Below, piece after piece: positions 190-9,189 of a stretch of 60,441 nt of DNA. The stretch spans positions 1 through 60,441 of the forward strand of contig JANNVX010000072.1 in the NCBI GenBank assembly GCA_031414595.1. Direction: 5' to 3'. Below the pieces are notes generated by a model. The model searched no databases. It was given only the letters and a program-made list of their open reading frames with translations, and was not told where the DNA came from. The position numbers were made by a program, and so were the translations under genes. This DNA is from Deinococcales bacterium (GTDB taxonomy: Bacteria > Deinococcota > Deinococci > Deinococcales > JAAFIG01). Numbering within the stretch: the stretch's first letter is position 1; each line of letters starts with the position of its first letter.

Positions 190-1353
190 TTACGGTAAAA
201 ATACAGAAACAGGCATTGGCTTATTGATAAGCGCGGTATCATCACCGAGTTGTCCAACATCATCATATCCCCATGCCAGCATTTTCCCATCGGATTTTAA
301 GGCAAGCGAATGATACCCACCAGCTGAAATAGCGCTAATGCTTGTTGCGCTCGAAACAGAAACAGGAATAGGATTATTGGCGAGTGTTACATCATTACCT
401 AATTGCCCTTTATCATCCTGTCCCCATGCAAACACAGTGTTATCAGATTTTAATGCAAGTGAAATTTCAGCACCGGCAGAAATGGCGGCAATACTTGTTG
501 TACCTGAAATAGAAACAGGAGTCGGTTTATAGACAAGTGTAGCATCATCCCCTAATTGTCCATAATCATCTGATCCCCATGCCAGCATTGTGCCATCAGA
601 TTTACGCGCAAGCGAATGATCGCCACCGGCAGAAATGGCGGTAATAGCCGTTAGTCCCAAGACAGGTACGGGCGTGGTTTTATGGTTTAGGGCAGCGTCA
701 TCACCCAATTGTCCTTTACTATCCACTCCCCATGCCAACACAGTGTTATCGGATTTTAAGGCAAGCGAATGTTGACCACCGGCAGAAATAGCAATAATAC
801 CCGTTGCACCTAAGACGGGAACAGGCGTGGATATGGCGGTATTGACGCTACCATCTCCTATTTGTCCACCGCCGCTCCATCCCCAAGCCAGCATTGTGCC
901 ATCGGATTTTAGTGCAAGCGAATGAAAATAACCCGCCGAAATAGCAATAATATTTGTTGCACCCAAAACAGGAACAGGTGTGGGTTTATCGTCGAGTGCA
1001 GCATTATTACCTAATTGTCCTCGAGCATCTGACCCCCATGCCAGCACTGTGCCATCAGATTTTAGTGCAAGCGAATGATAACCACCTGCCGCAACGGCAA
1101 TAATACCTATTGCACCCGAGACGGGAACAGGTGTGGGTTTATCATCAAGTCCAAAACCATCACCTAATTGTCCTTGATTATCACGTCCCCACGCCAGCAC
1201 TGTGCCGTCAGATTTTAAGCCAAGCGAGTGAAATGCACCCGCCGAAATTTTGGTGATAACCGTTGGCGTGCTTGGTGGCGGCGGTGGCGTGGTTGTTATA
1301 CACGAAAGAAGTGACGCGGACAGTCCAAGAGCTACAAATAGAATTTTTTGCAC
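190..1353 (-). CDS. RCC1-repeat (beta-propeller) lipoprotein
   Basis: GTG start with GGAGG RBS, lipobox-like LLSC, Pro-rich linker, seven ISAGxxHSLALKSDGTxLAWGxxxxGQLG repeats. Confidence 0.9.
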   Translation of the reverse strand: MQKILFVALGLSASLLSCITTTPPPPPSTPTVITKISAGAFHSLGLKSDGTVLAWGRDNQGQLGDGFGLDDKPTPVPVSGAIGIIAVAAGGYHSLALKSDGTVLAWGSDARGQLGNNAALDDKPTPVPVLGATNIIAISAGYFHSLALKSDGTMLAWGWSGGGQIGDGSVNTAISTPVPVLGATGIIAISAGGQHSLALKSDNTVLAWGVDSKGQLGDDAALNHKTTPVPVLGLTAITAISAGGDHSLARKSDGTMLAWGSDDYGQLGDDATLVYKPTPVSISGTTSIAAISAGAEISLALKSDNTVFAWGQDDKGQLGNDVTLANNPIPVSVSSATSISAISAGGYHSLALKSDGKMLAWGYDDVGQLGDDTALINKPMPVSVFLP

Positions 1354-1411: not shown

Positions 1412-2356
1412 TTAATTGAGTGTTTCTAGATAGGCTTTTATATCAGCCGTACTGGTTTCGACAAAGGTTAAGTTCTCGGTCAGATTAGCCGTTACAGTAA
1501 TGGTTTTCCGAGCAAGGTACTGTTTGCCACCATTAAAGGTGAGGGCGACAATTTCGGTATTTAAGCCAATTGGCACACCATTTGAGTCTTCATAGCTTTT
1601 GCGTTTGTTTGCGCCATCTTTGCTGTATAAGGCAATGACCGTATTGATACCTTGAGGAATCATGAAAACAATTGTATTGGCATCATTAATGGCATCAAAA
1701 GTAACGCGCAATGTGGTCTTAGTGCGTCCATCACTATAGAAAAAATCGCAGTTAATCCAGCCCTTATTAAAAATACTAAACACATACGAACCCGGAAGTG
1801 TGGTTTTATCAATGCCAAACTGTCCAGCAACTGGCTTCCAATTGACACTCGAGTCACCTGCGGCAAGTGGCGTAGGGTCAGCCACAAATTGCTGCATCCT
1901 ATCTTCTATCGCAGGTGTTCCAGCTGCGTTGGCTTTGAGTGGCACTGCCGCCGCTACGCCCTTGGCTGGATTGACATTGAGTGGCGCACCATCGGCTTCT
2001 TTTTTGAGTTCTAAGAAAAACATCCCACCCGAGACAAGTGGCTTTTCGCCAGCAACAGTCAGCACGTTACTGAGCAGCGCATCAGCTTTTGAAGCAATCT
2101 CACGGACTTGTAACACAGCATTACCTGTAAAAACCGAGCCATCGGGGTTGACCACTGAATCGTTGTTAAAAGTTAGGGTTGTGCCTTTAGTAAAACTCAC
2201 CTTAACGACTCCACTTCCAAGGGTAACAATTTTAGTTTGAATTGGTACGCCGTTGGCATCAAAGAAGGCTTGTGGATTGGCTGGCACTGGAATGATTGGT
2301 GGGGTACAGGCAGCAAGACCGAGGGCGAGGGCAGCAATGGTTAAAAACTTTTTCAT
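1412..2356 (-). CDS. hypothetical lipoprotein
   Basis: AGGAG RBS, signal peptide with LAAC lipobox, 314 aa, GWINCD motif. Confidence 0.85.
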   Translation of the reverse strand: MKKFLTIAALALGLAACTPPIIPVPANPQAFFDANGVPIQTKIVTLGSGVVKVSFTKGTTLTFNNDSVVNPDGSVFTGNAVLQVREIASKADALLSNVLTVAGEKPLVSGGMFFLELKKEADGAPLNVNPAKGVAAAVPLKANAAGTPAIEDRMQQFVADPTPLAAGDSSVNWKPVAGQFGIDKTTLPGSYVFSIFNKGWINCDFFYSDGRTKTTLRVTFDAINDANTIVFMIPQGINTVIALYSKDGANKRKSYEDSNGVPIGLNTEIVALTFNGGKQYLARKTITVTANLTENLTFVETSTADIKAYLETLN

Positions 2357-2476: not shown

Positions 2477-2509
2477 AGCATAATTTTTAGGGTCTTAAAA
2501 CGGTCTTAA
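2477..2509 (-). promoter_or_regulatory. promoter with tandem TTAAGACC direct repeat (11-bp period) and -10 TATGCT
   Basis: GGTCTTAA at 2491-2498 and 2502-2509; on the minus strand the 3' repeat lies 8 nt before TATGCT (2482-2477). Confidence 0.7.
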
Positions 2510-2662
2510 GGGCTTCTCGAGAAGCGTTGGTCACTGCCCTCGAGTAGAAAAGTTGGTCAGTCCGACCTCCAAACGCCAAGATTTTTTAGCATCGCACCAT
2601 TAAGCGCCATGCCCGTCTACCAACTGTCTACTTAGTTAAATCTTAGTGATATACACTCAGAT

Positions 2663-4288
2663 TTAATGATTATACTCTTGGGTTTTCTCGAGAACCCAAT
2701 TGCTATAAATTCCATTTAGAAAACCATTTATTTTGGCTGTTGTATCTCGTGCATCGTAATCCCAGATAGCACTTGGATCGAGTTGATAAGCGCTTCGCAA
2801 GGAGGCAATGCTGTTTTGCCAGCCTAGTGCCAAACGCAAATCTCGGGTCAGTTTCCAAATCGCTTTCCGCGCACGATTTTTCTCAAGTTCAGACAACGCA
2901 TCTGCATAAAGTGCATCAGTAATTTGTTCTAAACTAGCTGTTCCGCCCTGCTCGAGAATAAAAACCAGTAATTCACCAATTCGACTGGTTGGTGATATTG
3001 GCACAGGACGCTGATTGACTTTGACTTGCAGCACACCCAAAGCCACAATTTCGACTTTGGTTTGCACAATGTACTCGAGGGTTATTGGTGGGGATTCCAG
3101 CAAGGCAAACAGGCTTGGAAAAGCACGGCGTTCTTCCCGCATTTGTAAAGTATTCAAAGGAATTTCTTGCAGTAGGTCGTGGGCTTTTTGATTATTCTCA
3201 GCCCGCAATTCGAGTTCGGCACGGGCAACAATGGCTAACTGCTGACTGTTGACATTTGCCAGTGGCACAGCATTATCAAGGTCTTTTTGGCAAAGGGCAT
3301 TTAAGCCCAATGCCAGTAAAGTCATGGCTCGAGTGACCAGCAAAGTAGGGATTGACCCATGCTTAAAAATAGCCGCTTCGATCACCTCAAGGGCTGTGCC
3401 AACTTGCCCCGCCAAACGCAATGTCCGAGCCAAACCCTGACGGGCAGCCAAGTCATCATCTAAATCTATGGCACAAGCGATGGCTTGATGCAGTAAAAAT
3501 TCGGCTCGAGCAAATTCGCCTTTGGAACGCCTGAAAGAAGCCAAGCCACGCAGCACCGCCGAGCGTAAACCCTTGGCTTGTGGTTTACGGGTCAGGTGTT
3601 CGGCAATCAAAAAATGTTGTTCGGCTTCTGGGTTCTCTATGCGTAAGGCATTATTACCAAGGTTAAAGCGAAGCCATGCCAAATAAAAATAATCGCGTTT
3701 GAAGTAAAATAGGGCTTGTGTGTAAAGTTGTTGAGCAACATCTGGTTGATTAGCAATTGCTTGGCAAGCAGCATAATCTAACAAGGTAAGACCATAAGCA
3801 CGTCCTTGTTGTAACTTGAGTGCTTCTTGAAAATAAAATTGCCAGTTTTGTTGAAGTCGAAATTGTGAAATTCCTAAACGTCGCAATGCAACACCACGAA
3901 GATGATCTTCTAAATAAGGGAGCGCCGAAAAAAGTATAGTTTGGCTTTCCGTGTGTTTGTTTTGGATAATCAAAGCGAATGCACGGTCAACAAGAATTTG
4001 TGCATTTGTTCTATCATCAAATAAACCAGCAACAGAATCTGTAAATTCGAGTAATTCTGGTACAAGACGATTACCCATTAAAACAGTTGCATAAGAAGCC
4101 GCGACTCGAGCCGAAGATAAACGAACATTTTCTGGAACAAGTTGTAAACAATTAAGGAGTGGTTTCCATTGGTCTTGGGATTGGATTTGTAATGTAAAGT
4201 CTAAAATCTTTGTAGCAGCTTCTTCGTAGCGCTGCTGAAAAATCAAATGTCGAACAATAAGTTGAATCCGAGTTATCGAAAATGACAC
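2663..4288 (-). CDS. TPR-repeat protein with C-terminal OmpR/SARP-like winged-helix domain (putative peptide-sensing transcription activator)
   Basis: Helical TPR-like repeats (e.g. YLAWLRFNLGNNALRI), then VEIVALGVLQVKVNQRPV...ELLVFILEQGG...ITDALY...LRLALGW...YQLDP. Start moved to in-frame GTG 4288 (GGGGG RBS) because the upstream extension overlaps a hairpin and the small gene. Confidence 0.8.
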   Translation of the reverse strand: MSFSITRIQLIVRHLIFQQRYEEAATKILDFTLQIQSQDQWKPLLNCLQLVPENVRLSSARVAASYATVLMGNRLVPELLEFTDSVAGLFDDRTNAQILVDRAFALIIQNKHTESQTILFSALPYLEDHLRGVALRRLGISQFRLQQNWQFYFQEALKLQQGRAYGLTLLDYAACQAIANQPDVAQQLYTQALFYFKRDYFYLAWLRFNLGNNALRIENPEAEQHFLIAEHLTRKPQAKGLRSAVLRGLASFRRSKGEFARAEFLLHQAIACAIDLDDDLAARQGLARTLRLAGQVGTALEVIEAAIFKHGSIPTLLVTRAMTLLALGLNALCQKDLDNAVPLANVNSQQLAIVARAELELRAENNQKAHDLLQEIPLNTLQMREERRAFPSLFALLESPPITLEYIVQTKVEIVALGVLQVKVNQRPVPISPTSRIGELLVFILEQGGTASLEQITDALYADALSELEKNRARKAIWKLTRDLRLALGWQNSIASLRSAYQLDPSAIWDYDARDTTAKINGFLNGIYSNWVLEKTQEYNH

Positions 4289-4321
4289 AAAATCCCCCAC
4301 TCGAGTATGACACAAAAATTT

Positions 4322-4345
4322 AGACGGAGTTTTATAACTCCGCCT
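4322..4345 (-). terminator. stem-loop between the peptide gene and the TPR regulator
   Basis: AGGCGGAGTT-ATAA-AACTCCGTCT inverted repeat on the minus strand; weak U-tail. Confidence 0.55.
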
Positions 4346-4361
4346 ATTACAACAAGAATAA

Positions 4362-4511
4362 TTATCCGCCAGTTCCAATTTTCGGTTCATCTTCGGCAAT
4401 AATCTGAACTGGGCTACTATGGCTCGAGAAATTGCTTGCCACAAATGCTATTGCCATTAAACTAAGAATTCCAGCGATAAAAAAGCGGTTGACTAAACGA
4501 ATTTGTTTCAT
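4362..4511 (-). CDS. 49-aa secreted propeptide MKQIRLVNRFFIAGILSLMAIAFVASNFSSHSSPVQIIAEDEPKIGTGG (putative signalling peptide precursor)
   Basis: Not in the supplied ORF track; AAGGAG RBS 7 nt before ATG; basic N-region, 16-aa hydrophobic core, polar linker and charged/Gly C-tail; TAA at 4364-4362. Confidence 0.8.
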   Translation of the reverse strand: MKQIRLVNRFFIAGILSLMAIAFVASNFSSHSSPVQIIAEDEPKIGTGG

Positions 4512-4613
4512 GGTATTTCTCCTTTTGGAACGAATGAGGGCGGATTCCGATAACTGTTTGATTTATTTTTTGGTGTTGACCTCCTTGGTGTTGCTGATGC
4601 CAAGAAGGTATAA

Positions 4614-4661
4614 AAAGACCCCTTAAACCACTCATAAGGGGTTAAGGGGTAGGTCTTAAAG
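4614..4661. promoter_or_regulatory. imperfect inverted repeat containing the TTAAGACC motif, upstream of the peptide gene
   Basis: AAGACC-CCTTAA...TTAAGGGG-TA-GGTCTTAA; GGTCTTAA at 4652-4659 is identical to the unit at 2491/2502. Confidence 0.55.
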
Positions 4662-4695
4662 GTTCTGCTGGATTATGTTTTTTGACTCGAGACAA

Positions 4696-4727
4696 CAAAA
4701 AACCCCAACTTTTAGGTTGGGGTTGGG
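4696..4727 (-). terminator. intrinsic terminator after the subtilase gene
   Basis: AACCCCAAC-loop-GTTGGGGTT followed by a T run on the minus strand. Confidence 0.8.
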
Positions 4728-4745
4728 GCTACCTTGAATTATGCT

Positions 4746-6419
4746 TTACGGCACTAGAATTCCTGCGATATTTAAGAGTCCCGCGCCGCATTTTGTGCTT
4801 AGGCAACTCTGAAAATTGGCTGTGCCAGATGGTATGGCGGTGCTGAGTAGTTTTTGCTTAAAGGTTTGGGGGGTGACTGCTAAACCGATATTCTGGGCGT
4901 AGTACAAACTAGCGGCAGCACTGACTTGTGGGGCGCTAAAGGATGTGCCAGAAAACACCCGCAGAGCGGTGGGCGGGGATAAATTATTGGCAGCCAAAGA
5001 CTGCACCACACCATTGGCGCTAACGCTGACGCTGCTGGCTTCGCTCGAGAAATCCGAAGCCCTAAAAATAGTGGTGGCTGGAATTTGTTCGACACTGGCA
5101 ACCGAAATTAAACCAGACACGGCTTCAAAACTGCCTTGGGCGGCAAGGCTGTGGTTGGCTGGAAAGTTCGGTGGTTTACTGACCACCAAGCCTTTATTTC
5201 CTGCCGAAGTGATAATGCTCATGCCTCTGGCGCTGGCTTCGGTTAGGGCGCTAAACAGTAAACTCGAGGGGTATTTAGAACCTAGGCTGAGGTTAATGAT
5301 TTTGACTGGGCTACTTCCAGTATTCAGGCTAATGGCGTAGCAAACACCCATGACCACACTCGAGTTGCGGCAACGTCCGGCTGCCCCTTCACAGGTTTTA
5401 ATTGGCACAATCATTTTGTCCATTTGGGCGGTGTAGGCGCTCGCCATTGGTGCAAAGGTTTTGAGGATTGTAGCGCCAATAACGCCAGCTACGGCAGTAC
5501 CATGCCCAACCATACTCGAGGTGATTGGTGTACCATCGGCGCTGCGTTCGGTGGCGAGGTCGGAAACATCGGTCATCGTGCCTTCGCTGGTAAAATTACG
5601 AGCTGCTGCCGTGTCTATAAAATTCTTTCCGCCGAAAATAGCAAAAACTGGATGAGGGCTAACACCAGAATCAAGCACTGCCACTCGAGCGGTGCTTAAA
5701 TCGGTGGGAATAGCGGCTGGGCGCACCTCTGGAACAACCTCGAGAGATAGCATTTGGCTTAAGCCTGAGCTTGGTTCATCGGCAATGTACTTGGCATTTA
5801 AGTCAAAAATCACATCTGGCTCGAGTGTGGCTAGGCTGCGCTGTAAGGCATTTAAGCCGTCTATTACAGAACGCCCGATGGTGTTATCGGCTAAGACAAC
5901 CAATGTCTGACCACAAACACTGCTGCTGTTTAGCACAAATGGTTCTTGGGTTTGGGTAACACTAAAGTTTGCCGCACCAATGGCAGCTAGAACTGCTGTT
6001 CGGTTAGCGTTGGGCTTAAAAGCCAGTAAACCACCACTTCCAAGAATGTACTGATTGCGTGTGGACACAGCCCCATAATCAGCTTCAGATAAAACATCAG
6101 CTAACTCGAGGACGGTTATTCCAGCTTGAAGCGTGGTGTTTGCAGCAGTGTTATTGACTTGCAAGGTATATGTGCCACTTGGTATAGCGCTGAGAATTTT
6201 GACTTTTACAAAAGTGCCGTTGGGGTCGGTCTCGAGAATCTGGGTGGCTTGCCCAGCAATCAGTACCGATTGTGGAAATAATTGTTGACCTTCGATTAAG
6301 AACTCGGTGCTGCTGCTTGAAACGAGGGTACTTGGGTGTAATTTTGGGGCAAGATTGACGACTGGTCTGAGGCAAGCCGTTAAGCCAAGCATCAGGATAA
6401 GCCAAATAATTTTTTTCAT
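4746..6419 (-). CDS. S8 subtilisin-like serine protease, lipoprotein
   Basis: LTAC lipobox; catalytic motifs VLDSG, GHGTAVAG, SAGN, GTSFSAP. Confidence 0.92.
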   Translation of the reverse strand: MKKIIWLILMLGLTACLRPVVNLAPKLHPSTLVSSSSTEFLIEGQQLFPQSVLIAGQATQILETDPNGTFVKVKILSAIPSGTYTLQVNNTAANTTLQAGITVLELADVLSEADYGAVSTRNQYILGSGGLLAFKPNANRTAVLAAIGAANFSVTQTQEPFVLNSSSVCGQTLVVLADNTIGRSVIDGLNALQRSLATLEPDVIFDLNAKYIADEPSSGLSQMLSLEVVPEVRPAAIPTDLSTARVAVLDSGVSPHPVFAIFGGKNFIDTAAARNFTSEGTMTDVSDLATERSADGTPITSSMVGHGTAVAGVIGATILKTFAPMASAYTAQMDKMIVPIKTCEGAAGRCRNSSVVMGVCYAISLNTGSSPVKIINLSLGSKYPSSLLFSALTEASARGMSIITSAGNKGLVVSKPPNFPANHSLAAQGSFEAVSGLISVASVEQIPATTIFRASDFSSEASSVSVSANGVVQSLAANNLSPPTALRVFSGTSFSAPQVSAAASLYYAQNIGLAVTPQTFKQKLLSTAIPSGTANFQSCLSTKCGAGLLNIAGILVP

Positions 6420-6450: not shown

Positions 6451-9189
6451 TTAAGAACGCAGCGACTCGAGTTTAGCAGTGACCTCAGCTAGGTTATCAT
6501 GAATGTCTGGACGCACTGGAAGATGGCTATTCTCCAAGGTCTGAATGGCGTTTTGGTATTGCTGTTGCGCCATTTCAAATTGCCCAAGTTCAAAGTAGGT
6601 TACGCCCAAATTATTGAACGCAATGGCAATCCCAGTTGGATTTTCAAAACGTTGTTGCAACCCTAAACTGCGTTCTTGAAACTCGAGGGCGGTGGTCAAT
6701 TGATTCTTTGTGCCGTAAAACATCCCAAGATTGGTTAAAGCCCTCGAGACCCCATGCAGGTCGCCGTTGGTTTCGCGTAAATGCAGACATTCCAGCAGAT
6801 GCTTTTCGGCTTTGCTGTCGTTTAGGGCGGTATAAACCAAGCCCAACCCGCCAAGTGAATCGGCAAGCCTGACCGAATCGCCAAGTACCCGCCGAATTCT
6901 TTGGGCTTTTTGGTAATACACAAGGGCATTGGTATAATCTTTATTGTTGTACTCGAGTGAACCGAGTAAATTATAGGTCTGACTGATGGCGCTCTGGGCG
7001 GCACTGCTGGCAATACCGCCTAACAAATCAAGGGCTGTTGCTAAAAGCCTTGCAGATTGCACAAAATCACGGTATTCGCGTTGCAAAATCCAGACTCGGG
7101 TATTGAGTAACTTAGCTTGCAGCACAGGTTCTAGTATCGCTGTGATGCTCTGGGCAGTCTCGAGTTCTTCAAGGGCTTCTTGGTAACGCCCAAAACTTTC
7201 TAGGGTATTGGCAGTCTCTAAGAATACTTCGGCTCGAGCTTCTGGGCTTCGGGCAATACTTAAACTACGCCCTAACCACATTTGGGCAAGCGCCAAATCA
7301 CCACGTTGGGTTTGGATTTGAGCCAGTTCAAGAAAGGCATGAAAAGCGCTTTTTTCGTCTTTTTCATCCCAGACACTGCGAGCTTCCCAATAATGCCGTG
7401 CGGTGTTGTGGTTTTTGATTTGCGTCGCCCGAAAATGCAGCAAACTGCGCCGTGAAGCCGAAATGTTTTGGTCCAAGACCTCGCGCACAATATCGTGTGC
7501 AAAACCAATTTGTGTGGCGGTTTGACTAATCAGCATGGCATGCCCTAATTCCTCGAGTGCCGCATTTAATTCATCCAACGAACGCCCCGAAACAATTCGG
7601 AGTTCTGCCAGTGTCGCCAGCCCATAAATACACAACGCCTCGAGAATCTGCCGTGCAAGTTCGCTTAAGTTATGCAAGCGCGAACCCACCATTTCCGAGG
7701 TTTTACTTTGTGCATCTGGGGCAAAACGCAGCAATTCCAAAACAAAAAAAGCATTGCCGCCAGAACGTTTTTGTAAAGTAGCAAAGTCTAGGCTGTCCGT
7801 CCCGATGGCTCGAGCCATTTGCATCATGGCGGTTTCGGATAAAGCACTTAACGCCAAAAACTTTGCATGGTGCGCCTCGAGAACCGCCTTGATATTGCTG
7901 CGTGGCGTTTGGGTGTTGCGTTGGGTCAGTAGTAAACGCAAGTCTGGTATTGGGCGCTCGAGCAGAAAAAGCACAAACTCGAGGCTGCTCGAGTCTAACC
8001 ATTGGGCATCTTCAAGCAGCAGTAGGCTAACTTTACAATGGGTCAGTAATACTTTAATGGCTTGAAACAAGACAATCCGCTGACTCGAAAAGCGCGACTC
8101 GAGTAAACTGCTTAAAACGGCTTGTTCGGTTGCCGCTAAAACACTTAAAGCATCAGGAAAATCTTTTAAGCACTCCTGCACCAGCATTTCTAAAAGCGCA
8201 AAGCCAAGGCTTTCTTGGTGAGAACTTAAGCAAATTGTGTAACCCCCAGTAAGCCGCATAACCTCGAGTGCCAACCGTGTTTTTCCTGCGCCCGGCTCAC
8301 CAAGAATCACGGTTGCTTGACCAGCTTGTAAAAAGTTTAGAACCTGCTCGAGTTCTGATTCACGTCCAATCAAGGTTAATTCGGTCTTGGTTATTGGTGC
8401 AGGAATGAGCTGCTGCCCCAACTCGAGTTGCAAGGCTTTTTTACACGCCTCGGGTTGTTCGGAGCGAATGAGTTCAAGCGCCTCTAAGGTACGCCTGCTT
8501 GGTTCAACCCCAAGCTCTTCGAGCAGTAATGTACTGATTTGCGTAAACACCAAAACACCTTGGTCTGCCAGCCCAATTGCTCCAAATGCCAGCATCAAAT
8601 ACCGCGCTGCATCCTCGAACGGGTCGCCATCGGTTGTTTGACTGACTTTAAGAAAGGTTACGGCTGCCTTGTACTCACCAAGCCTGATTTGTTGCACCCC
8701 AAGCCGCACTGCAAATTCTCGACGCTCTAAAATCAAGGTTTCTCTGGTGGTCAATAACCATTCTTCAAATTCTGCCCCTAAACCCATTTCCCAATCGGTT
8801 AAGCGTAAACCTGTCAAAAATGCACCGCGCCATAAATCCCAAACCGAACCATCCAAAGCCGCCATGCCGTTTCTGAACTCGAGGACATCACAAGAAAAAC
8901 CTGTTTGTAAGGCAAAAAACTCTTGGTTGGTGTCCAACACACCCTTACCCAAGGCTTTCTCGAGGGTGTTACGCGCCACCGATAAGTTATTCAAAGCGTT
9001 CGGCGCATCCGCCCAGAGCATGATGCCCAGTTCACGCCGCGAAATCCGCCCACCAAGTGCGGCAATTGCCAGCATCGCAAGGGGTTTAACCCCCAGTTTA
9101 ATGGCTTTTTGACCCAGAAAAACACCTGCCGCACCCAGTAACTCGAGTCTTAAGGGTGATACAACAACGCTTTGGGCTACGACCTGCAT
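6451..9189 (-). CDS. SARP/BTAD-type regulator with AAA ATPase and TPR domains
   Basis: N-terminal LELLG...wHTH/BTAD (ELGVEPS), Walker A GEPGAGKT, LEDAQWLD, GGNAFF, FAHDIVRE, C-terminal TPRs. Confidence 0.9.
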   Translation of the reverse strand: MQVVAQSVVVSPLRLELLGAAGVFLGQKAIKLGVKPLAMLAIAALGGRISRRELGIMLWADAPNALNNLSVARNTLEKALGKGVLDTNQEFFALQTGFSCDVLEFRNGMAALDGSVWDLWRGAFLTGLRLTDWEMGLGAEFEEWLLTTRETLILERREFAVRLGVQQIRLGEYKAAVTFLKVSQTTDGDPFEDAARYLMLAFGAIGLADQGVLVFTQISTLLLEELGVEPSRRTLEALELIRSEQPEACKKALQLELGQQLIPAPITKTELTLIGRESELEQVLNFLQAGQATVILGEPGAGKTRLALEVMRLTGGYTICLSSHQESLGFALLEMLVQECLKDFPDALSVLAATEQAVLSSLLESRFSSQRIVLFQAIKVLLTHCKVSLLLLEDAQWLDSSSLEFVLFLLERPIPDLRLLLTQRNTQTPRSNIKAVLEAHHAKFLALSALSETAMMQMARAIGTDSLDFATLQKRSGGNAFFVLELLRFAPDAQSKTSEMVGSRLHNLSELARQILEALCIYGLATLAELRIVSGRSLDELNAALEELGHAMLISQTATQIGFAHDIVREVLDQNISASRRSLLHFRATQIKNHNTARHYWEARSVWDEKDEKSAFHAFLELAQIQTQRGDLALAQMWLGRSLSIARSPEARAEVFLETANTLESFGRYQEALEELETAQSITAILEPVLQAKLLNTRVWILQREYRDFVQSARLLATALDLLGGIASSAAQSAISQTYNLLGSLEYNNKDYTNALVYYQKAQRIRRVLGDSVRLADSLGGLGLVYTALNDSKAEKHLLECLHLRETNGDLHGVSRALTNLGMFYGTKNQLTTALEFQERSLGLQQRFENPTGIAIAFNNLGVTYFELGQFEMAQQQYQNAIQTLENSHLPVRPDIHDNLAEVTAKLESLRS

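Follow-up and report, generated by a model that had tools for sequence, protein, structure and literature searches.

A 60,441-nucleotide stretch of DNA from a Deinococcales bacterium (contig JANNVX010000072.1 of assembly GCA_031414595.1; hereafter, the window) carries on its minus strand a small gene for a putative 49-aa propeptide (4362..4511), followed by the gene for a 541-aa protein (4288-2663) that combines a predicted tetratricopeptide repeat (TPR) superhelix with a predicted C-terminal winged helix. A first-pass annotation made from the sequence alone had proposed that these genes form a peptide signaling circuit like the RRNPP (Rap-Phr) systems; it had assigned the host to the Deinococcota, which is correct, and all of the cassette genes lie on the minus strand at the coordinates it first gave. 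The core interpretation, a propeptide paired with a receptor made of a TPR domain and a SARP-type winged helix-turn-helix (wHTH), is well supported by sequence comparison and structural modeling. The basis observed here comprises the pairing of the two genes and its conservation, coding selection on the small gene, the domain folds of the receptor, repeat boxes in the DNA, and the gene neighborhoods. From these, we infer export, the cleavage site, re-import, binding, activation or repression, and density dependence, and we consider it probable that the cassette uses a diffusible, re-imported peptide ligand, working like an RRNPP system but built from different parts.

A word-indexed protein search returned 12 relatives of the receptor, and the six genome loci found first, all from Deinococcales metagenome-assembled genomes, showed a similar small open reading frame (ORF) in 5/5 cases with upstream DNA. 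In total, 93 distinct receptor loci were gathered from Deinococcota genomes, 92 of which had at least 250 nt upstream. A fixed rule scanned 600 nt upstream of the receptor gene for a stop-delimited frame with a start codon no more than 25 codons from a hydrophobic 11-mer; its tail part required that the final 16 residues include an acidic residue followed by K, H, or P, and that G or C account for at least two of the final six. A same-strand signal-like ORF was found in 82 of the 92 loci and the tail rule was passed by 70, whereas the reverse complement of the same stretches, serving as the control, gave 19 signal-like ORFs and none that passed the tail rule (0/92). The rule was written after the first 33 loci had been viewed; among the loci fetched later, 44 of 59 passed. 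Translation of the flanks of homologues was a check recommended by the first-pass annotation, and manual reading placed a peptide ORF in 81/92 loci, compared with 70/92 by rule. The manual additions were nine "hydrophobic-only" cases (L029, L038, L074, L094, L097, L098, L100, L102, and L104) and two loci, L034 and L041, with peptide ORFs farther upstream or overlapping, while the signal-like ORFs of L053, L070, and L082 were rejected as spurious. Eight loci (L028, L039, L040, L058, L061, L086, L107, and L108) had no peptide ORF in the upstream stretch scanned. The gap between the peptide ORF and the receptor gene had a median of 70 nt, and a Shine-Dalgarno-like sequence was present in 55/79 cases; for the 49-aa ORF of the window, this is GGAG, 8–9 nt 5' of the ATG.

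The pooled pN/pS of the peptide ORF was 0.35 over 17 equal-length pairs (five pairs of unequal length were left out) and ranged from 0.11 to 0.23 inside the orthologue group of the window. The last 10 residues were identical in 16 pairs, with a mean of 3.7 synonymous base differences per 30 nt. Judging from these comparisons, purifying selection acts on the protein sequence of the peptide ORF. A chance ORF was rejected on the pairing counts, the pN/pS values, and the synonymous change in the tail. No Pfam or NCBIfam family matched the window peptide or those of its relatives, and querying the ESM Atlas with the peptide gave no informative match (best score, 0.82). The small gene of Deinococcus sp. 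KNUC1210 (L110 3663-3836) is labeled "hypothetical protein" (WP_239048411.1). For plasmid pMESIL01 of A. silvanus (L109 3207-3620), the PLSDB gene table, which is itself incomplete, lists no gene at that place, and the original record may annotate one.

The hairpin that the first-pass annotation had placed between the peptide and receptor genes was recovered as a terminator-like structure at 4321..4346 (minus strand), with an 11-pair stem followed by the T-rich tail AAATTTTTGTG; its folding z-score was -2.3. A hairpin with a U-tail stands at the same place in L001, L002, and L004 with a different stem sequence, and such conservation of structure with different stems fits a conserved terminator or attenuator. 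A terminator-like hairpin in this position, structurally conserved in orthologues, would also suit a cis-acting leader (upstream ORF) that steers hairpin read-through into the receptor gene and encodes a functionless peptide. We regard that explanation as extremely improbable, since the tail amino acids are conserved through synonymous change, across families and over a wide GC range, the signal-peptide features are conserved as well, and the hairpin begins 16 nt past the peptide stop codon (4346-4321) and so does not overlap the ORF.

The propeptides are 35–76 aa long (median, 52). That of the window has a positive N-region, a hydrophobic core, a polar linker, and the tail ..IIA-EDEPKIGTGG; the ribosome-binding site, signal-like segment, and tail that had been annotated at 4511-4362 were all found, and they belong to a conserved gene. 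The N-region was net positive in 77/79 peptides and more positive than the tail in 71/79, and this orientation is the one expected when a Sec signal leaves the tail outside the cell. When aligned at the conserved K (n = 69 of the 81 peptides, those with K within the last 10 residues), the tails gave the logo A(31)-G(40)-D(61)-[D/G]-P(42)-K-x-G(41)/C(14)-[T/A/G]-G(58)-G(50), after which most of the proteins end, with the +1 position after the conserved K as the most variable one. The residues before the tail are hydrophobic-hydrophobic-Ala. In several paralogues, an AxA site immediately precedes the tail (AHA-EDGGKVNTGG, VLA-ENGPHCC, and AFA-DDPKPC.., with the hyphen at the presumed cut), so signal peptidase alone could free a 7–11-mer there. 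The small gene would thus encode a Sec-type propeptide that is exported and cut after the conserved hydrophobic-hydrophobic-Ala, releasing a C-terminal peptide of about 10 residues, which in the window would be approximately EDEPKIGTGG.

These features also bear on the possibility that the small protein is an anchored single-pass membrane or envelope partner, with the receptor sequestered at the membrane or sensing unexported precursor, so that the pair reports the state of secretion or of the envelope and not cell density. Every member has a hydrophobic segment, the window peptide is without a good signal-peptidase site near its hydrophobic core, and the long, conserved, positive N-regions of Thermaceae-like members could form a cytoplasmic contact surface; the complex model described below shows only the fit of tail and groove, not the meeting place of the two proteins. 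We nevertheless judge an anchored partner unlikely, because the positive-inside rule (the 77/79 and 71/79 counts above) puts the conserved tail outside the cell, conservation of the N-region does not extend across the family, and the classical AxA lies directly before the tail in several members.

Several variants of the propeptide were observed. Members with family code f4 (Thermaceae-like) carry an N-terminal extension of about 20–25 residues before the core, ..N.P.VG..G.K.S..W.KGG, which is conserved at the protein level (L036, L037, L041, L042, L060, L064, L065, L071-L073, L077, and L080). Paired-Cys tails, either PKCC.GG or PC..C at the very end, occur in L026, L029, L030, L034, L041, L042, L074, L076, and L081, and also in L005, L006, L020, L021, L049, L050, and L052; judging from their sequences, they could form disulfides, bind metal, or be modified. 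On the receptor tree, the PKCC tail type arose twice within one genus code. Locus L020 has two successive propeptide-like ORFs (901-1170 and 1248-1385) before one receptor gene, with the tails ..VDDNPKPCSVC and ..ADDPKPCPACRR, an arrangement that resembles the tandemly duplicated pheromone genes of Bacillota.

The receptor gene (4288-2663) begins with a GTG codon at 4288 that is consistent with the N-termini of homologues. Searched as a single sequence, the 541-aa protein gave only generic TPR matches below the cut-offs of Pfam and NCBIfam, and no signal peptide or transmembrane segment was visible in its translation. A profile of 40 homologues matched only TPR proteins in the PDB (best E, 1e-45). 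The AlphaFold model built with the homologue alignment (pLDDT 94.6, pTM 0.90) was helical to residue 394, followed at 411-511 by two short strands, three helices, and a hairpin, the OmpR-type pattern, and the matches listed for a Foldseek search with the whole model were generic TPR superhelices. We therefore divide the protein into a TPR-type superhelix, predicted to be the peptide-binding domain (residues 1-394; 3107..4288, minus strand), and a predicted SARP/OmpR-type winged-helix DNA-binding domain (residues 411-511; 2756..3058, minus strand), after which about 30 residues remain.

The last 140 residues modeled alone reached a pLDDT of 91, and Foldseek ranked the AfsR SARP domain first (8hvr_I; E 3.3e-4, TMq 0.72), followed by CadC, EmbR, PhoB, and PhoP. 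The profile of this domain against the PDB had EmbR as its best match (E 0.038), and Pfam Trans_reg_C matched 8/32 family members (best E, 8.8e-5); at the sequence level, this agreement with the fold evidence for a SARP/OmpR winged helix is weak. Together, the AlphaFold, PDB profile, and Foldseek (AfsR) results bear out the earlier description of a TPR protein with a C-terminal SARP/OmpR winged helix. Pfam found no BTAD domain in the 541-aa protein at E values up to 0.1.

The receptor was present in 118 of the 364 Deinococcota genomes searched, distributed by family code as f1 17/18, f2 63/125, f4 37/68, f3 0/23, f5 0/128, and f6 0/1. A whole-library profile search gave 341 clusters (50% identity) at E 1e-30 or better; among the best 150 of these 341, most were full-length (500–600 aa) and about 25 were shorter fragments. 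By these sequence criteria, the receptors form one coherent family of moderately large size. In the ESM Atlas, the nearest clusters came from Deinococcota and then from BTAD+TPR regulators of other phyla, which hints that the receptor descends from SARP-type regulators. No relatives were found on metagenome contigs with the two patterns used or on viral contigs with the one pattern used.

The genome of the window encodes six full-length receptor paralogues, each after a 38–59-aa ORF whose product combines a hydrophobic segment near the N-terminus with a related tail, and the six cassette pairs have five different tails. Just past one of the paralogous receptor genes of this genome, a convergent PemK/MazF-type toxin gene was observed (L010 3078-3434, minus strand; Pfam E 9e-23). 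Across the family, tail types track the receptor clades on the receptor tree. The first-pass annotation had anticipated co-varying C-terminal tails: tail types do follow receptor clades, and clades whose tails are without lysine or contain CxxC often differ at receptor residue 171 or 205, but this co-variation of tail type and groove is only suggestive because it is confounded by shared ancestry.

To place the tail relative to the receptor, TPR residues 1-405 (40-row alignment) were modeled with propeptide residues 20-49 (29-row alignment). The three runs gave ipSAE values of 0.74, 0.77, and 0.27 (median, 0.74), whereas the best of three controls reached 0.01 (range, 0.00-0.01). In the calibration, the score mark was reached by 58/80 solved complexes and 2/110 mismatched pairs, counts that hold only roughly here because custom alignments were used. 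The runs shared at least 45% of their contacts, with a partner pLDDT of at least 38. Confident contacts involved peptide residues 37-49, which correspond to the conserved tail, and were tightest at 43-48; on the receptor they lay along the concave face, between residues 35 and 348. The complex model, another check that had been suggested earlier, supports the predicted binding of the tail in the TPR groove. Groove residues were conserved as follows: R74 in 68/93 receptors, W104 in 64/93, R136 in 77/93, D/E171 in 76/93, W205 in 67/93, A282 in 80/93, and G285 in 81/93.

The modeled complex is also relevant to an alternative in which the TPR-wHTH protein responds to some other input, and the small gene is just co-transcribed or regulated and yields a secreted product such as a bacteriocin-like, metal-binding, or surface peptide. 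The PKCC.GG and PC..C variants could bind metal or form disulfides, the tails, in contrast to private pheromones, show high conservation between genera, and the hairpin that follows the peptide gene suggests an abundant transcript of its own. What the model places in the groove, however, is exactly the conserved tail (controls, 0.00-0.01), 81/92 loci retain the pairing while the other neighbors all change, and the tail type shifts together with the receptor clade, including the two independent switches to PKCC. A secreted product of this kind thus appears quite unlikely.

Under the preferred reading of a re-imported signal, the released peptide would build up outside the cell and presumably be taken up again by an Opp/Dpp-type permease. 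The genome has 14 genes for family-5 peptide-binding proteins of the Opp/Dpp type (15 matches, two of which are adjacent fragments of one gene), although as evidence for the import route these are not discriminating. Inside the cell, the peptide would bind to the 541-aa protein, in the concave groove of its cytoplasmic TPR domain, and binding would switch the C-terminal SARP-type winged helix, which is predicted to recognize direct repeats spaced by 11 bp and situated 8 bp from a -10 element.

Several observations weigh against this reading. The outer envelope of these bacteria would need to be crossed twice by the peptide, and 11/92 loci have no peptide ORF. The presumed cut site of the window peptide, QIIA-EDEPKIGTGG, lies about 14 residues past the hydrophobic core, too far for signal peptidase alone, so a second protease would be needed there. 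N-regions are unusually long in Thermaceae-like members. The tail GDDPKIGTGG is found in five loci from three genus codes, and tails are near-identical across genera; cross-talk would therefore be possible, unlike with the fast-diverging Phr pherotypes. Of the three complex runs, one reached a score of only 0.27, the partner fold was uncertain (pLDDT 39-51), and the predicted interface did not exceed the remainder of the TPR domain in overall conservation (top-residue frequency, 0.447 vs 0.458). Finally, no Rap, NprR, PlcR, PrgX, Rgg, or AimR chain appeared among the best 60 PDB profile matches or the Foldseek matches listed.

The DNA around the cassette contains repeat boxes that may be the sites of the regulator. 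As first annotated, one motif precedes the peptide gene and recurs in tandem ahead of the lipoprotein genes downstream: GGTCTTAA, which reads TTAAGACC on the coding strand, is located at 4652-4659, and the tandem copies are at 2491-2509. The motif occurs five times in the window against 1.6 expected, and 3/100 shuffles reached five, so the copy statistics alone are weak; the stronger support comes from its placement, which is conserved in the orthologous loci. Before the lipoprotein gene, the window has TTAAGACC-N3-TTAAGACC (11-nt period), 8 nt, and the -10-like TATGCT (2477..2509, minus strand), and the same arrangement of tandem TTAAGACC, 8 nt, and TAnGCT was found in L002 and L004, which are both of the orthologous loci with that DNA. 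A second direct repeat, GTAGAC-N5-GTAGAC, also with an 11-nt period (2615..2631, minus strand), is found about 110 nt farther upstream than the TTAAGACC pair, again with equivalents in L002 and L004, and the two repeat pairs suggest two stacked regulator sites or promoters. The conserved block 5' of the peptide gene (4600..4662, minus strand) contains a single TTAAGACC box (4659-4652) together with an inverted repeat and a T-run, and TTAAGGGG is located 33 nt past the box; the block with box, inverted repeat, and T-run is shared by the window, L001, L002, and L004 and may, from its sequence, be a promoter or operator. In the locus of the window, the box before the peptide gene would provide feedback and the boxes before the downstream lipoprotein genes would provide output.

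The geometry of the lipoprotein promoter can be compared with that of known SARP sites. The passages on SARP target promoters in PMC10936776 describe direct repeats spaced by 11 or 22 bp whose 3' repeat lies 8 bp away from the -10 element, and the sequence of the lipoprotein promoter matches this geometry. Across the family, we scanned 200 nt past the receptor gene for the best 11-mer pair with a period of 11 or 22. Repeat pairs with at least 8/11 identical bases were found in 42/74 loci, against 13/74 for the coding control and 12/74 for the shuffled control; a GAC core is common to many of these repeats, and the paralogues L008, L009, and L023 each have their own 11-nt repeat before the next gene. 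Genome-wide, the tandem TTAAGACC had one exact site and near-matches were not enriched (6 vs 15 in the control), so the regulon cannot be defined by motif search.

The genes after the receptor differ between the group of the window and the rest of the family. Within the orthologue group of the window, lipoprotein genes come next, and the original claim that the circuit controls surface lipoproteins fits only that clade; most of the family instead has a WYL regulator next, often followed by cas3/cas5c or by cmr2. A same-strand gene for an HTH-WYL-WCX regulator started within 800 nt past the receptor in 59 of the 74 loci with at least 1200 nt downstream, and all six ORFs sampled (6/6) passed the WYL and WCX Pfam cut-offs. 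Within the 6–9 kb fetched, the helicase part of Cas3 was found in 24/74 loci and Cas5c in 22/74, which corresponds to type I-C, whereas one clade has type III-B cmr2 as the gene next to follow the receptor. Eleven further loci of the family of the window, each with 1.4 kb or more of downstream DNA, had no WYL gene. For most other members, the proposed output gene is a WYL-domain regulator, in many cases with type I-C cas3/cas5c after it, or type III-B cmr2.

Examples of this arrangement were found both in a cultured species and in the genome of the window. In Allomeiothermus silvanus DSM 9946, the receptor ("tetratricopeptide repeat protein") lies directly 5' of genes annotated as Cas3 and Cas5c, and the first ~335 residues of that Cas3 are WYL-like. 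In the genome of the window, cas genes follow 3/6 cassettes: two precede Cas10/Cmr2 (L009, with Pfam Cmr2_N 2e-14 and palm2 1.5e-28; L008, by tblastn) and one precedes a WCX regulator, Cas3_HD, and Cas5c. The cassette of the window itself is not beside cas genes. We consider the link of the wider family to WYL regulators and CRISPR-Cas the most consequential additional result.

WYL regulators beside cas operons are known, and an HTH-WYL-WCX gene directly 5' of cas3, or fused to it, is the commonest neighbor of the receptor. A table in PMC5529391 lists WYL next to cas3HD in many Thermus genomes, and a term search of that source returned zero mentions of TPR or tetratricopeptide. Relative to these WYL-cas3 pairs, the new element is the peptide-receptor pair 5' of the WYL gene. 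Quorum-sensing control of CRISPR-Cas in Pseudomonas aeruginosa and Serratia likewise places the receptor for a cell-cell signal upstream of cas expression, but there the signal is a small molecule (acyl-homoserine lactone) and the LuxR-type receptors are encoded elsewhere in the genome, whereas the Deinococcota cassette is proposed to use a gene-encoded peptide and a receptor physically joined to the cas locus.

The cassette resembles the RRNPP/RRNPPA systems (Rap-Phr, NprR-NprX, PlcR-PapR, PrgX, Rgg-SHP, and AimR-AimP), as described in general terms in the main texts of PMC10075063 and PMC9765709, in having an adjacent secreted-propeptide gene and a cytoplasmic TPR-type receptor. The propeptide C-terminus as presumed ligand, several paralogous pairs per genome, and a feedback site before the peptide gene are further points of likeness. 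RRNPP receptors, however, have an N-terminal XRE-type HTH (in Rap, an N-terminal effector domain), whereas the winged helix of the Deinococcota receptor is C-terminal and of SARP/OmpR type. RRNPP systems belong to Bacillota and their phages, while the Deinococcota cassette has an outer-envelope host, a ligand motif conserved across genera, and WYL regulators and cas genes as common outputs. Because receptor homology and the N-terminal HTH both fail, we do not class the cassette as a member of RRNPP; of the RRNPP-like circuit first proposed, the pairing of propeptide and TPR receptor stands.

Likeness to SARP regulators (AfsR, EmbR, and the small SARPs of Actinomycetota) is found in the DNA-binding fold, for which AfsR is closest, in the presence of a TPR domain in AfsR as well, and in the candidate direct repeats, which have 11-bp spacing and a 3' repeat that lies 8 bp away from the -10 element. 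SARPs have an N-terminal wHTH followed by BTAD, whereas the Deinococcota receptor has the TPR domain first and the wHTH last, with neither BTAD nor an ATPase domain. With the domain order reversed and BTAD absent, the receptor is not a canonical SARP. To our knowledge, pairing with a secreted peptide gene is not a feature of SARPs.

The first-pass annotation knew of no such system in this phylum, and we found no description of such a peptide-TPR system in Deinococcota in main texts of the literature, with the limit that the supplementary candidate lists of PMC10075063 may include non-Bacillota entries. Term searches of the main texts of RRNPP surveys, including PMC10075063 and PMC9765709, found neither "Deinococc-" nor "winged", and Thermus was likewise unmentioned in those two. 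A survey of quorum sensing in thermophiles reports no complete peptide system. Insofar as these sources represent it, the literature treats peptide signaling via cytoplasmic TPR receptors as a trait of Bacillota and mobile elements. If our reading is true, a non-homologous cassette of the same logic exists in Deinococcota, and this signaling design would have evolved more than once, including in outer-envelope bacteria.

A broader proposal, which we advance tentatively, is that Deinococcota, including cultured Deinococcus and the Meiothermus group, use an independently evolved form of peptide quorum sensing with a ~10-residue peptide and a TPR + SARP-wHTH receptor. Its ancestral and commonest output would be the downstream WYL and type I-C/III-B CRISPR-Cas genes, so that immunity would be switched by a gene-encoded pheromone, and in the family of the window duplicated cassettes would have been turned to different outputs, surface lipoproteins among them. 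If so, it would be the first peptide signaling through a cytoplasmic receptor outside Bacillota and their phages. The joining of the receptor gene to WYL-cas3-cas5c or cmr2 yields a testable hypothesis of CRISPR-Cas regulation for Deinococcus, Meiothermus, and relatives: cultured carriers exist, among them A. silvanus DSM 9946 (receptor MESIL_RS17030 on plasmid pMESIL01), Deinococcus sp. KNUC1210 (MF271_RS02160 and RS02155), and D. gobiensis I-0, the predicted ligand is short, unmodified, and synthesizable, and the predicted DNA sites are defined.

As the first-pass annotation had reported, an S8 subtilase lipoprotein is encoded upstream of the peptide gene. It is 557 aa long (4746..6419, minus strand; Pfam Peptidase_S8 E 2.7e-24) and has a lipobox and D/H/S motifs in the translation; an intrinsic terminator lies 3' of the gene at 4724-4701. 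The accompanying claim that the subtilase is part of the system did not hold for the family: it adjoins the cassette only in the orthologue group of the window (the window, L001, and L002), that is, in 3/33 loci with at least 1.5 kb of flank, and was rejected as a family component. It is a possible maturation protease, a role confined to the clade of the window because it neighbors the cassette in so few of the loci with enough flank, and the second protease that cutting probably requires in this locus might be this enzyme.

An adjoining S8 protease also recalls ribosomally synthesized and post-translationally modified peptides (RiPPs), with the small ORF as a precursor of leader and core and the TPR-wHTH protein as pathway regulator or peptide chaperone. 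An S8 protease beside a RiPP precursor is likened to LanP-type leader proteases, and a short product with a conserved C-terminal core and Cys-bearing variants in some clades would suit such a pathway. Yet no modifying enzyme is conserved beside the cassette, the N-terminal part resembles a Sec signal and not a RiPP leader, the subtilase occurs in only 3/33 loci, and most tails are missing a modifiable pattern of Cys, Ser, or Thr, which makes a RiPP origin very unlikely.

Further upstream, a gene on the minus strand (6451..9189) encodes a 912-aa AfsR-like regulator with SARP wHTH-BTAD, AAA/STAND ATPase, and TPR regions (Pfam BTAD, AAA_16, and TPR_12). It is syntenic in L002 (906 aa), and related large regulators adjoin L005 and L006. 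Beside the 541-aa protein, this regulator is a second candidate binder of the direct repeats.

Downstream, an inverted repeat (TGAGTG..CACT.A; 2643..2659, minus strand) lies right after the receptor stop codon and is also present in L002 and L004 and in the paralogous loci L008, L009, and L023; its conserved form reads TGAGTG..CACTCA, then GAT[AT][AT] (L002, ~8320; L004, ~2200). The repeat-bearing promoter is followed by a lipobox ORF for a 314-aa lipoprotein with no Pfam family (1412..2356, minus strand), which is the likely direct target. L002 and L004 carry these promoter elements as well, there in front of a DUF11-domain lipoprotein of 1023 or 1036 aa. The last gene of the string encodes a 387-aa lipoprotein with seven RCC1 repeats (190..1353, minus strand; Pfam RCC1 and RCC1_2, E 1e-74 or better) and may be co-regulated with the 314-aa gene.

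The palindrome CTCGAG was present in 318 copies in the 60.4-kb window, compared with 6.5 expected (sd 2.7; shuffles nowhere close). Copies lie within and between genes, for example at positions 1020, 1848, 2422, and 2516, and the palindrome also occurs in the loci of relatives.

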